Assembly: GCF_009834535.1 (NCBI RefSeq)
Contig: NC_045696.1
Span: 6,760,001 to 6,824,000 of the forward strand
Origin: Camelus ferus
Lineage: Eukaryota
Length of the DNA: 64,000 nt
Direction: 5' to 3'
Shown: in pieces, positions 53,271-59,083 of the stretch
How positions within the stretch are numbered: position 1 is the stretch's first letter
Layout of the letters: every line of letters starts with the position of its first letter
The notes under the pieces: model-generated
Told to the model about the DNA's origin: nothing
The model's input: only the letters and a program-made list of their open reading frames with translations
Database searches by the model: none
Position numbers and translations under genes: made by a program

Positions 53271-55264
53271 TATGGTGTACTATATCCATTGATTTTAGGA
53301 TTTTAAAACCAACCTTGCTTTCCTGAGATAAAAGCCAGTTGGTCATGGTGTATTATTTTTATATACTTTTGGGTTCAGTTGGCTAAAATTCTGTTAAGCA
53401 CCACCAAACTCATGTTCATTTTTTGCTAAGGATATTTTAAATTATTAATTCAGTTATTTTACTTTAAACAGAAATATTCAAATTTGTGTTTTTTCTTGAG
53501 TCATCAAGATAGTGTGTATTTTTCAAGGAATTTATCTATTTCATATATGTGACCAATTCTGTTGACATCAAGTTGCTTATGATTTTTTATCACTATGTAA
53601 ATGTCTGTAGGATCTGTAGTGATCTTCATCATCCAGGTACTGATAAGGTTGGTATTTTTTCTTCTTCTTTTTTTTCTTTTTGATCAATGAGCTAAAGGTT
53701 ATCCTACCCAATTAATCTTTTTTTTTTTAAATCAGCTTTGATATTATTTTTTCTGTTGTTTATTTATTTCTTATTTCATTGATTTCCATTCTGATTTTTT
53801 TTCTTTTTTCCACTCTGATTTAATTCGGTCTTACCTTTCTAGCTTCCTAAAGTGGAAACTTCAAGCACTGGATTTGGATCTTTCTTCATTTCTAAAGCTA
53901 CACTTTCCCTCTGAAGATCTACTCTAGCTGCATCCCACGAATTTTGTATGTTATGTTTACATAATCATTTATTATTTCTAACACTTCGGTCTTTCCCAGA
54001 TCTCTCTTTCTCTTCTTGATTTCTAACTTATCTTGTAATCACAGATTATCTGCTGTATAATACAAAATTTCTTTAAAAATTGTGACCCCGTGTTATTATT
54101 GAGCACCTGGTCTACCCTGATGAGTGTTCTATGTGCTTGGAAGAATGCATGTTCTGTTGTTTTTTGGTGAAGTGTTCTATAGTTGTCATGTAGATCAAAT
54201 TGGTTGACAGTGCTGTTCAAGTGATCAATACCCTCACTGATTTTCTGTCTATATGTTCCATCAATTACTGGCAGGAGAATAGTGAAATCGCCAACTATAA
54301 TTGTGATTTGTCTATTTCTCTTTTCAATGCTGTCAGTATCTGCTTCATATATTTTGTAGCTCATTGTCAGATACATCAACACTTATGATTGTTGTTTCTT
54401 CCCATTGTATGTGGTAAATGTCCCTCTTTATCCTTATATTGATTAAAGTTTATTTTGTTTGACACAACCACTCAAGCCCTCTTATGCTTTTGTTTGTATA
54501 GTATGCTTTTTTCTATTCTTTTTACTTTCAATCAACATGTACCTTTGAATCTAATGTGCATCTTGAACAGGCAGCATATAGTTGGATCTTGATTTTTTTT
54601 TCTCACTTAGTCTGACAATGTCTACCTTTGGATTTCTGTATCTATTGTATTCACTTTTAATATGATTATTAGTATGCATACAATTTTCCCTGCCAATTTG
54701 CTAATAACTTTTTATTTGCTCTCATCTTCTGCCCTATTCTTCTTTTACTACTTTCTTTGGTGCTAAACAAATATTTCTTATACAATTTTAAGTTTTTTAA
54801 TGACATCTTAGTCATATTTCTCTGCTTTTTTTCTTTTCAGTTGTCAATCTCATGATTAAAATATTTATTTTTAACATAGTAATCTTCTTCCTTAAGTTTA
54901 TATTAACTTACTCCTAATAGAACATAGAAACTTTGAACCAGCATATTGGCTCAAACAGTATCCCATGTTATTGTAGTCATATATATAACACATACATGTG
55001 GTATAGACCCCGAAATATAGTTGTGTCTTATAACTTAAGAAGATAAAATACATAAGGACATACACAAACACACACACACACACATTTACTATTTCCAATT
55101 CTATTGATTCCTGTAGATCTGAGTTGCCATCTGGTGTCATTTTCTTTCAGCTTGAAGGACTTCCTTTAGCACTATAGCACAGGTTTGCTACCAGTAATTT
55201 ATTTCAAGGGTTTTTCTTTATCTGGAAAGTATTTTAATTTTGCCCTCTTATTTTAAGTCTGGTT

Positions 55265-57450
55265 ATCTGAGTTGTAATTCACATACATTTTAAATTATTA
55301 TTATTTTTTTTTTAGTTGACAGACACAAAGTCCTGTAACAACTGCCAAAATCAATATATAGAACTGTTACATTACCCCTAATTTTCTCTGGTGCCTCTTT
55401 GTAGGAAATCTCCCCTCCAACCCCCAGGCACTGGCAATTGCTGGTCCATTTTCAGTTTCCATAGTTTCACCTCTTAGAGAATGTCACATAAAGGGAATCG
55501 TATGGTACGTAGCCAACTGAACGTTGCTTTTCTCACCACAATACTCTTGAGATTCATTCATGTTGCTGCACATGTCACAGGTTGTTCCATTTTATTGCTA
55601 AGTAGTGTTCTATGGTATGGATGAAAACAGTTACCTATTATTCACCTACTGATGGACATTTGGATCGTTCCCAGCTTTTGACCATTATGAATAAGGCTGC
55701 TCTAAACATCTCCATACGGATTCTTGTGTGAACATCAGTTTTCGTTTCCTTTGAGCAAATACCACCAGTGTGATTGCTGGGTCTTATGGCGAGAATATGT
55801 TTAACGAATAAAAATGGCCAAACCGTTGCCAAACTCGTTATATTTTTTGCATTCCTACAAAAATATATGAGTGTTTTAATTTCTCCACTTGGTTTTCTCA
55901 GCTTTTTTTTTCCATTTGAATAGATATATAGGTGTGTCTCACTGAAGTTTTAATTTGCGTTTACCTAATGACTAATGATGTGAGATTATTTTTTGTGAAT
56001 TTACCATTCATATATATACTTTGGTGAAGTTTCTATTTAAAAATTGTCCCTTTCTTTAAAAAAAAATTGTTAGTTTTCTTACTATTGTTTTGAGAATTTC
56101 TTACATATTCTGGATTCAGAATTTTATCATACATACACACTTTGCAAGAATTTTTCCCAGGCTCCGGCTTGTCTTTTTACTTCCACAGTGTGGGCAAAGA
56201 TTTTAATTTTAATGAATTCAAATATTGATCAATAGTTTCTTTTATGCCTCATGTTTCTGGGCATCCTATTTAAAAATATTTTGCTTAATCCAAAGTCACG
56301 AACACTTTCTTCTGTTTTCTTCTGGAAGCTTCACAGTTTGAGATTTCAGATTTATGCCTGTAGTCTGAGTTAATTTTTGTATATGGCACAAGATTGAAAT
56401 AAAGGAGTTTTTTTTAACAGATAAATATTTGTTGAGAAAGTCAGTCTCATGAGTGCAATTGTTCCCCCACTCAGCTGCCTAAGAATGGGCCTCGGACATG
56501 GAAGACTTCCTTAGCAAGAGGTGAAAAGCCCGCACAGCCTGTATTGGGGTTACCACCTTGTGTGGGAATATCTTTCCTTGTTTCAGGCCCAGTGAGTGCT
56601 CTTTGTCTTTGCTTCAAGTGTGGGTGCCATATGGCACGTGGCCAGTCCCACCGCTATATCTGTCTTCCAGGGAGAGCGAGCAGGGTTCCTTCCACTGCAG
56701 CACCAGAGAGGTGCCTTCAGGCCAAACTTCCATTATTATCCACAAGGTGAGACCCGTTGGCTGTCACAAGATGTCAAAAGAAGATAGAGCAAGCAAACGT
56801 TTCCATGGGGAACTGATGCCCACTTTTGCAGCTGGCCTTTCTCATCTCTCCTCTAGGGAAGTAAAGCACTGCTCCTCCCAGTGCTGGACTGCCTTGTGCT
56901 TTCTTTGGCGACTCAGACACCAAGGTGCAATGGGTTAGATATGCTTCAAGTTCTCCCCTGGGACTGGTAACTGCTGCACAGACCTTGCTCCCCTGGGATT
57001 GATAACCAGCACATGACACTCTGCTCAATAATATTCAGTTATTCCAATGAGCATTTGTTAACAAGATTATGCTTTCTTTGTTTACCTGCCTTTGCATCTT
57101 TGTCAAAAATCAATTGGCCATAAATGTGTGGTCCATTTCAGGATTCTGTATTCTGTTTCATGGATGTATATGTCATTTCTTAGACAATTCCACATTGTCT
57201 AGATTACTGTAGCCTTACAGTAAGTCTTGGAATCAGATTGTGTACCTATTCCATCTTTTCCCTTTTTTCTCAGTATTTTTTTAGGTGTTCTAGTCCCTTT
57301 GACTTGCCAACTAGTTAATTTCTACAAAAACTCCTGCTGAAATTTTACTTACAATTGCATGGAGTCTATGGATCAATTTGATGAGCATAGACGTGTTAAA
57401 ATATTGAACATTCCAATCCACAAACTATAGATGTAGATATTGATTTATTT
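55265..57450 (-). mobile_element. Second old LINE-1 (3' UTR and ORF2 3' part), interrupted by an LTR
   Basis: 'ccccaggcactggcaattgctgg...tattcacctactgatggacatttggatcgttcccagcttttg'; ORF 55638..55832(-) 'MFRAALFIMVKSWERSKCPSVGE'; resumes after 57035 'cagttattccaatgagcatttgtt...gtcaaaaatcaattggcc'. Confidence 0.85.
56430..57030 (+). mobile_element. ERVL-class solo LTR (MER54/MER74-like)
   Basis: Cleanly interrupts the L1 with a perfect 5-bp TSD atatt (56425-29 / 57031-35). Ends tgttgag...ctcaata are an inverted repeat. TATA-like at 56655, AGTAAA at 56860. Confidence 0.85.
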
Positions 57451-57454
57451 AGGT

Positions 57455-57690
57455 TAGGAGTCACCAAACTTTATCAGCAAAGAACTAAACAGAAATATTG
57501 TGTGCCTTGAGGGCTAAGAGGTAAAATCAAAGATGCTGTACTGGTACTTGTATAAGAGAGAAAACAAATTTTCACAAGTTTTATTGACAAAATATTACAC
57601 TAATAATTGAGAATAATATTCTGCAGTAAGCATATGCTAATGAGAAGAATGGAATTCTATTTAGAAAGGGTAGCATTTCACTTAATTGAG
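57455..57690 (-). mobile_element. hAT-Charlie relic (MER58B/Cheshire-like)
   Basis: 'taggagtcaccaaactttatcagcaaag...aagaggtaaaatcaaagatg...gagagaaaacaaattttcacaag...ctaatgagaagaatggaattct'. Confidence 0.65.
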
Positions 57691-58132
57691 TGCTTAGCTT
57701 GGTGATTCTGATGGATACTGTATTCTCTGGGCACAGCTATATTCACTGTATTTAAAAGAAAAAATACATACAATGTTTTGCCATCTAACTCAATAACAAA
57801 AAAAATTCACACTCAAATTTAACGTTTCCCTCCATTTCTTATTTTGACATGATGATTATGTACTGGTAATAACAATATATGCATAAAATGTTGCAGTTAC
57901 ACCTCATATTTTCACAAGTCTGTAAATATGTCCAATTAAATTTTTTTCTGATCCACACACCTATTTATCCCCATCAGTTAGTGTCTTATGCAACAACAGC
58001 AGACTGACTTAGTTACCCTAGATTTAACCCAAACATCCGCCAACCTACTTTCCACTCTCAACTCCTTTCAAAGATCATTTTTTCATATGTCTTCATATGA
58101 AGTCCTGGCTGGGTTGCAGAAGGATAAGTCTT

Positions 58133-58222
58133 TTGGGGACGGGGGAGGTATTGGAGATTGAACCCAGAACCTCGTGCATGCTAAGCACACACTCTACCAC
58201 TGAGCTAAACCCATGCTCCCCA
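58133..58222 (-). mobile_element. tRNA-derived camelid SINE (vic-1 type) with perfect TSD
   Basis: Reverse complement has A box TAGCTCAGTGG and B box GGTTCAATCT. 15-bp exact TSD agaaggataagtctt (58118-32 / 58223-37). Confidence 0.93.
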
Positions 58223-59010
58223 AGAAGGATAAGTCTTGAATCTTCTTGAGCTGTCCACTTGAAAGATGTCCTTCAATACTACAAGTTCACTCCTCAAGGC
58301 CTCTGGGCTGCCGTCACCATGAGAATTCTGGGATCCAGAGAACAGTCTGCAATTGGGAACTTCTCCCTCCTCCTCCACAGATGTCAAGAAATGATAGAGC
58401 AAGCAAATATTTCCATGACCAAACTGCCACTTCATCTGTCTAACACTGAAATGCCAGCATGTATGACTCTCCGCTGAAAGGCTGGGATGATTTACAAAAG
58501 AAAACACAACACGTGAGGGAGAAGGGGGAAGGGGAAGGTAGGTGCTACATAGGATGTTTCCCAGAATTTTCAGGGAAGGCACCTACAATCTGCTCACAAA
58601 AATGTCCTCTGCTGTGAGTATCAACTAGCTTATTTGCCTTCAGAAAAGTACCTCACTCCAAAAATTCTTGTCAAACTTCCCCTCTTGACTCTCCACCCAC
58701 CTTTTGGAGAATCACCCCTACCCAGAGGGAATCACTTAACATACAAAGCACCATAGGCCACCAATTCTTCTAGTACCATGAGTGCATTTCCTGAATTTGA
58801 ATTATTCAGCCTGAGATTCAGTACTAGCCAAATGTTAGCCCTGATCCTCAGCCTTCCCAGTTCCATAGATGGTCTGGTGGAAGGGGCTTAGGCTGCCAAG
58901 GAGAGACCTCGGGGTGGGGTCTATCAGGGATGGGCTTAGGGCGGTTTCAGCTCAAGTTGCAGACACATGTGCCTCTATCATTGACATCTCTCTATTGCAG
59001 CACTAGCAGG

Positions 59011-59050
59011 CACACACACGTGCACACACACACACATGCACACACACACG

Positions 59051-59082
<32 letters not shown>
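59011..59082. repeat. (CA)n microsatellite
   Basis: About 72 bp of near-pure CA repeat with few interruptions. Confidence 0.95.

Positions 59083-59083
<1 letters not shown>

Follow-up and report, generated by a model that had tools for sequence, protein, structure and literature searches.

A 42-nt templated insertion in an old solo long terminal repeat of Camelus ferus with its sole homologue 1.6 kb downstream

Germline insertions templated by nearby DNA, with 2–12 nt of microhomology or microhomeology, are a described class, in which the templates lie within 100 bp in yeast and the human events are described as larger (PMC8421209). When an intronic break is repaired from a transcript, the intron is expected to be deleted (PMC12065846). 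The DNA analysed here is a 64,000-nt stretch of the Camelus ferus genome (assembly GCF_009834535.1, contig NC_045696.1, positions 6,760,001 to 6,824,000 of the forward strand), called the window in the following. It contains an old solo long terminal repeat (LTR) carrying a 42-nt insertion, and this insertion is a templated patch, presumably left where a break or stalled fork underwent repair. It is a private copy of unique nearby sequence, with the donor site intact, microhomology at one side only and neither target-site duplication nor poly(A), and it therefore fits a templated patch of known kind. For genomic DNA as the template, a share that includes a variant with several template switches, the chances are judged to stand about even. 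The features that carry this result are the following.

56430..57029, + strand (sense): old solo LTR-like repeat and recipient of the insertion, member of a dispersed family (alignment with 29 copies)
56761..56802, + strand: private insertion in the LTR, 42 nt (empty columns in all 29 family copies)
56761..56764, + strand: CTGT, matched by neither template (read from a putative exon 1 it would be TATC, from genomic DNA CCTC)
56765..56770, + strand: CACAAG, the same as the 6 nt before the GT of the LTR donor (56741–46) and one inserted A from genomic CACAG at 58376–80 (direct comparison, local alignment)
56771..56802, + strand: templated core, identical to 58381–58412 at 27 of 32 positions (sequence comparison)
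56803..56807, + strand: CCATG, native to the LTR and present also at the end of the template; junctional microhomology (family alignment)
58381..58417, + strand: template, consisting of the core 58381–58412 and the shared CCATG 58413–58417, single-copy in the genome (genome searches)

The family alignment included the window copy and 29 fetched copies (L002–L030). The site of the 42-column block 56761–56802 was spanned by 26 of the 29 copies, L015, L019 and L028 being left out of the count because they were too gapped beside the insertion site, and the block was absent from all 26. This is what the first-pass annotation of the window, made from its letters alone, had anticipated for about 56762–56802. 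In L011 the sequence at the site is ...ACCCGCTGG followed directly by CCATGGGGGACTGATGCCCAC, while the window has ...ACCCGTTGG, the 42 nt and then CCATGGGGAACTGATGCCCAC. The flanks of the insertion, ...CCCGTTGG and CCATGGGG..., include no duplicated target bases and no A-run, and no bases of the LTR have been lost.

Positions 56769–56807 and 58379–58417 are identical at 34 of 39 ungapped positions, in direct orientation and with an offset of 1610 nt, and CAC(A)AG joins the left end of the match in local alignment at the cost of one 1-nt gap. Within the core the two copies have 5 differences in 32 positions, two of these falling where the insertion has ACGT and the template ATAT. Self-BLAST of the window produced 57 rows, among which the LTR/downstream pair alone was at most 80 nt long, at least 82% identical and at most 5 kb apart (E 7e-5). 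The genome searched comprised 2.09 Gb in 2043 contigs. A 25-nt core pattern with two degenerate positions and at most 3 mismatches found both window sites and one 3-mismatch match genome-wide; the reversed pattern, used as a control, found 1 match. The extra match, on contig C4 (L034), was tried as a third copy of the core, and as its scores against the LTR and against the downstream region were alike on both strands, in a noise-like manner, it was treated as chance. Searched genome-wide, both 56735–56835 and 58240–58700 matched only themselves, the template region thus being single-copy. Scanning metagenomes with the 25-mer core gave 0 matches.

These results leave hardly any credibility to the view that the match is part of an LTR subfamily, some other dispersed repeat present at both sites, a chance likeness or an assembly artefact: the block is absent from every family copy spanning the site, the core is unique across the genome, and the pair has the low E value given above for the window. 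A mis-join in the assembly is disfavoured because it would not yield the 5 positions at which the two copies differ. Words sampled from the stretch were also looked for in sequencing runs. The 20 rows obtained included two organisms, which covered 0.94–0.97 of the words, and a run declared as RNA, which covered 0.11, and the 16 runs from the two organisms with at least 94% of the sampled words argue against an artefact of assembly, even if word shares cannot show the 42 nt themselves. The strings and coordinates of the first-pass annotation, the 34/39 match included, were all found in the sequence by direct comparison. Its proposal of a short templated insertion was upheld, the insertion being private to this LTR copy and having the downstream site as its sole homologue, and its reservation that the segment might belong to the LTR consensus or to a dispersed repeat at both sites is removed by the privacy of the insertion and the genome-wide uniqueness of the core.

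At the position of CCATG the LTR family has CCATG in 10, CCGTG in 4 and CTGTG in 4 of the 29 copies. As CCATG thus belongs to the LTR family and also ends the downstream homology, it is a junctional microhomology of 5 nt, a role that had been suspected for it from the sequence of the window. Beyond CCATG the LTR and the downstream site stay weakly alike (AACTG..CCACTT), at a score reached by 57 of 2000 shuffles, a marginal value for a likeness noticed post hoc. The CTGT at the left end of the insertion may be filler or a later change.

The weak likeness runs into LTR-native sequence, as would be expected if the LTR had been the source of a copy, and the downstream copy is only presumed to be native to its site. 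The 42 nt could then have entered the LTR from a sequence since vanished and have been copied later to 58371–58417, or both sites could be copies of a lost third. This explanation is considered quite improbable, as it takes two events rather than one, no third copy was found in the 2.09 Gb, and the likeness in its favour is the marginal one described above. The downstream site was also considered as a diverged relative of the LTR, but it has no likeness at BLAST level and only the marginal likeness of the right flank, so that this idea was left as unsupported.

If the template was genomic DNA, a break would have occurred in the R-like part of the old solo LTR, between 56760 and 56761. The right-hand 3' end (the complement of CCATGGGG) would have annealed via the 5-nt microhomology to CCATG at 58413–17, 1.6 kb downstream on the same chromosome, and a polymerase would have extended it leftward by about 32–40 nt along genomic DNA, through ATGTC into ...CACAG, where synthesis would have halted on reaching a polypyrimidine run of 16 nt. 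The new end would then have been joined to the left side of the LTR with a few unassigned bases. The outcome would be a 42-nt direct copy, with the LTR sequence kept whole and without target duplication or poly(A). Under a DNA template the exact CACAAG would come from the gain of one A, either at synthesis or later, its identity with the flank of the LTR donor would be coincidental, and the leftward genomic continuation of the insert would be ...CTCCACAG.

In favour of a DNA template, CACAAG differs from genomic CACAG by a single 1-nt indel, and the interval 56747–58380, which would be the intron of a spliced transcript reaching from the LTR to the template, is still present. The DNA model based on a 1-nt indel (cacag against cacaag), already offered in the first-pass annotation, still stands, since the local alignment has one inserted A. 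Polypyrimidine tracts stall polymerases and expose single strands. As the left edge of the template adjoins such a run, its boundary could be explained without splicing. Furthermore, local DNA-templated insertions are in our judgement far commoner than RNA-templated ones.

The left boundary of the copy brings in a second possible template, for which the following features are needed (a slash marks a splice-like boundary).

56741..56752, + strand: splice-donor-like CACAAG/GTGAGA, the GT being private to the window copy (sequence, family alignment)
58361..58380, + strand: acceptor-like polypyrimidine run with CAG (TTCTCCCTCCTCCTCCACAG/ATGTC, ending at 58380), possible triplex-forming or stalling tract (motif scan)
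58381..58512, + strand: putative exon-like interval of 132 nt, from the acceptor-like AG to the donor-like CAC/GTGAGG at 58513, without a long open frame (sequence)
56654..56664, + strand: TATA-like motif CTATATCTGTC, common to most family copies, not canonical TATAAA (alignment block 56640–56680)
56861..56866, + strand: AGTAAA, possible variant poly(A) signal of the LTR, 3' of the donor and the insertion (alignment)

The template may instead, as the first-pass annotation had proposed as one option, have been a + strand transcript driven by the LTR and spliced 56746^58381. The break would then have fallen 14 nt into the intron, and the right-hand 3' end would have been primed on CCAUG of exon 2 in the spliced RNA. 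Reverse transcription would have passed over the exon-exon junction and 6 nt into exon 1, and end joining with 4 nt of filler would have followed. This explanation as a whole is regarded as possible, at a probability clearly below even. Since the new end would have been end-joined and would not have annealed to the DNA of exon 1, the intron would have been kept. The insert would be expected not to run on into ...CTCCTCCACAG.

Spliced RNA would predict the junction CACAAG/ATGTC for 56746^58381, and over 6 nt this is exactly what the insertion has. Both splice-like sites are also strong and rare. The acceptor-like site has 16 pyrimidines of 17 and C at -3, and equally strong sites number 14 in 128 kb (both strands of the window), while there are 11 donors of the form MAG/GTRAG in the same 128 kb. 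The donor is sense-oriented and lies 3' of the TATA-like motif of the family and 5' of AGTAAA, and the downstream segment is exon-like, its 132 nt being followed by GTGAGG. In the literature, RNA-derived patches with junctions of the non-homologous end joining type, some of them from spliced cDNAs, are known in human cells and as polymorphisms (PMC5110952), and transcript-templated break repair occurs in human cells (PMC12065846, PMC11390984).

The spliced-RNA prediction is, on the other hand, only one base apart from that of genomic DNA, and none of the 4 bases of CTGT agrees with exon 1. Copying would have taken in no more than 6 nt of exon 1, and the intron has stayed in place, unlike in the published signature (PMC12065846). 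The transcript is putative, and the donor GT is a private and undated change: most family copies have GGAGAG at the donor position, L029 has GGTAGG and L005 has TGTGAG. No retrocopy of such an RNA is present elsewhere in the 2.09-Gb genome, and a weakly expressed LTR transcript would have a low prior for templating repair in the germline. In its boldest form this reading makes the patch the germline relic of an abortive repair from a transcript: reverse transcription of a spliced RNA begun in the LTR would have started in cis at the 5-nt microhomology and crossed the exon-exon junction, and end joining would have followed, the intron surviving. This is regarded as a live possibility, less likely than not.

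An upstream exon other than that of the LTR was searched for by its end, CTGTCACAAG/GTRAG. Exact matches numbered 9 genome-wide, compared with 13 for the reversed control, and 0 were on the contig of the window; within the window, with at most 3 mismatches, there were 5 matches when 4.1 were expected, none of them convincing. The power of this search was limited, because the event is old and the genome-wide scan demanded exact matches.

Several points weigh against copying from DNA as well. The left boundary of the copy falls on the strong acceptor-like site, and the hexamer before this boundary is the hexamer before the strong donor-like GT, 14 nt upstream of the insertion point. The joint chance of this under a pure DNA model would be approximately 1e-6 to 1e-4, as estimated from the site densities with thresholds set post hoc. 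The template is 1.6 kb off, beyond the typical range of flank-derived polymerase-theta insertions or of break-induced replication mediated by microhomology (MMBIR) in yeast (within 100 bp; PMC8421209). No microhomology was seen at the left junction, where 1099 of 2000 shuffles reached the score of the left flank. In the weighing, a likelihood ratio of perhaps 1e2–1e4 for RNA is set against a prior of perhaps 1e-2–1e-4, and a small share of the probability is assigned to none of the explanations considered.

The boundary could also have arisen by several steps of switching between DNA templates, a variant counted within the DNA share. A loop-out during synthesis-dependent microhomology-mediated end joining (SD-MMEJ) would have copied CACAAG from the sequence 20 nt upstream, after which synthesis would have moved to 58381 via the CACA(A)G likeness and back to the LTR at CCATG. 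CCACAAG (56740–46) and CCACAG (58375–80) provide 5–6 nt of microhomeology for such a move, and both iterative short flank-derived copies and complex events with multiple switches are reported for the class (PMC8421209, PMC5728401). The variant requires three switches, however, leaves CTGT unexplained, and gives no account of the flank copy ending exactly before GTGAG or of the distal copy starting right after a strong acceptor-like AG. It is considered improbable.

The divergence between insertion and template is 5/32 in the core (Jukes-Cantor 0.175) and 5/39 with the shared ends included (0.141). The neutral rate of mammals is roughly 1–2e-9 per site per year, and the divergence points to an event tens of millions of years ago, within broad limits of error. 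A younger date would follow if part of the changes had been introduced during synthesis by an error-prone polymerase. Given this age, present-day RNA data are able to support the idea of a spliced-RNA template but not to refute it.

The recipient at 56430–57029, putatively an LTR of an endogenous retrovirus for which the first-pass annotation had guessed MER54/MER74, has TG...CA ends and is one of a family of dispersed copies alike in length. A search with 56430–57030 gave 46 matches elsewhere in the genome at E ≤ 0.001 (86 candidates, 40 scored), with identities of 66–79%. The matches break off near query position 285–295 and restart at 374. The alignment extends from TGTTG... (56430) to approximately 57027; the copies begin with TGTTG, and the window copy ends ...GCTCA at 57027. 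The median identity of the window LTR to the family copies is 67%, and the family is therefore very old. No LTR-family matches in proviral spacing were found in the genome search with the LTR, internal retroviral regions not being searched for. AATATT is present on both flanks (56424–29 and 57030–35), but given the AT-rich flanks and a 2-nt uncertainty in where the LTR ends, it is not a secure target-site duplication.

A promoter function of the TATA-like motif is putative; a regular expression for the canonical TATA box matched 1 of the 29 copies. At the site of the poly(A) signal many copies have AAGTAAAG-like sequence, AATAAA or ATTAAA being present in 1 of 29, and AGTAAA can presumably act as a variant signal. 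In the 3' part of the LTR (56953–57006) a 19-nt motif is repeated after 35 nt (CTCCCCTGGGACTGGTAAC and CTCCCCTGGGATTGATAAC, 89%), and the family copies are length-variable there; this may be a small tandem duplication.

The 29 family copies represent 26 distinct ones, since L007/L008/L027 and L020/L021 form near-identical sets. The members are identical or nearly so within each set, the first set being on contig C37, with L007 and L008 81 kb apart in opposite orientation, and the second on C139 and C2. The sets look like recent segmental duplications, or in the case of C139/C2 perhaps like a redundant contig.

As a control for local templates, private insertions of at least 15 nt were collected from the 27 non-redundant rows of the LTR alignment. 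There were 8 of these, and a template within 1.5 kb was found only for those of the window and L013; alignment artefacts may account for some of the remaining six. The insertion of L013 (G000:C8:36445267-36448464) is 15 nt long (GCCACATAAGAATGG) and duplicates the neighbouring 15 nt exactly and in tandem. L005 (G000:C1:28779388-28782624) has, in a column near window position 56880, a private 20-nt insertion (TTCCATTCAGTGGAAAGTTA) that forms a near-palindrome with its flank (TTTCCA...TGGAAA). It resembles a snap-back template switch, and no separate local template was found for it (26 of 100 shuffles reached the score).

Between the LTR and the template there is a tRNA-derived short interspersed nuclear element (SINE) at 58118–58237, in which ARAGORN found a tRNA-Ala-like fold on the minus strand (58142–58213). 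The element, which lies inside the putative intron, is fairly young, because a direct repeat of 15 nt without mismatches, AGAAGGATAAGTCTT, borders it on both sides (58118–32 and 58223–37). A (CA)n microsatellite of about 36 units is present at 59011–59083, with CACACG-type variants beside it. A Pfam scan of 34 of the 100 listed open reading frames of at least 90 aa, mainly those of about 120 aa and longer, gave none at the cut-off. One 119-aa open frame on the minus strand (54026–54382) had a match to PIF1-like helicases below the threshold (E 0.005, 16.8 bits compared with the cut-off of 25.9), and it may be a decayed fragment of the Helitron type.

The patch has no evident function and is probably functionless, and if DNA was its template, it is a repair scar of the ordinary, neutral sort. 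Even so it makes a useful, clean example, because the old repeat family supplies 26 independent "empty site" references without other species. If it is true that the template was spliced RNA, the patch would be rare natural evidence for transcript-templated break repair in the mammalian germline. The outcome would then be new, a partial cDNA patch with the intron retained, compared with the whole-intron deletion known so far, and the patch would preserve an ancient splicing event of an LTR promoter. The approach is open to wider use: family alignments allow short insertions private to one repeat copy to be called genome-wide, and comparing the boundaries of their templates with exon-exon junctions, against chance, would test whether RNA-templated repair has left scars in the germline.

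Compared with known systems, the insertion is like LINE-1 retrocopies, which include class 1 templated sequence insertion polymorphisms (TSIP) and processed pseudogenes, in being a copy of sequence found elsewhere. It is unlike them in having none of their three marks (poly(A), target-site duplication and a TTTT/A target).

If the RNA reading is right, the closest systems would be RNA-templated double-strand break repair (RT-DSBR; PMC12065846) and RNA-mediated end joining (PMC11390984), with which the locus would have in common an intronic break, its own spliced transcript acting in cis and an exon-exon junction in the DNA. In the published account the signature of RT-DSBR is the precise deletion of a whole intron via two-sided homology. 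Here, in contrast, 56747–58380 is present, 42 nt were added via microhomology and end joining, and the transcript is putative.

Class 2 templated sequence insertions and their polymorphisms (TSI/TSIP; Onozawa and Aplan, PMC5110952), as far as they are described there, are similar to the insertion in being patched copies whose donor site is intact. They also have microhomology and a few non-templated bases at the junctions, corresponding here to CCATG on the right and CTGT on the left; they lack a target-site duplication, poly(A) and a LINE-1 target motif, and are fixed in the germline. As in this class, the end of the insert has no cryptic poly(A) signal. The described cases of that class, however, have lengths of 73–414 bp or more and derive from loci far away, often on other chromosomes, and largely from RNA, while the insertion is 42 nt long and its template lies in cis 1.6 kb away (1610 nt downstream, on the same strand).

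The templates of MMBIR and polymerase-theta insertions, according to the published descriptions, are typically tens to hundreds of bp off and often inverted, whereas the template here is direct and at 1.6 kb lies outside that range, and the left junction differs in its lack of visible microhomology. The insertion is nevertheless like the templated insertions of MMBIR (MMB-TI; PMC8421209) and of polymerase theta in being a short copy of nearby DNA, one of whose junctions has 5 nt of microhomology that microhomeology may extend, and also these occur as germline variants.

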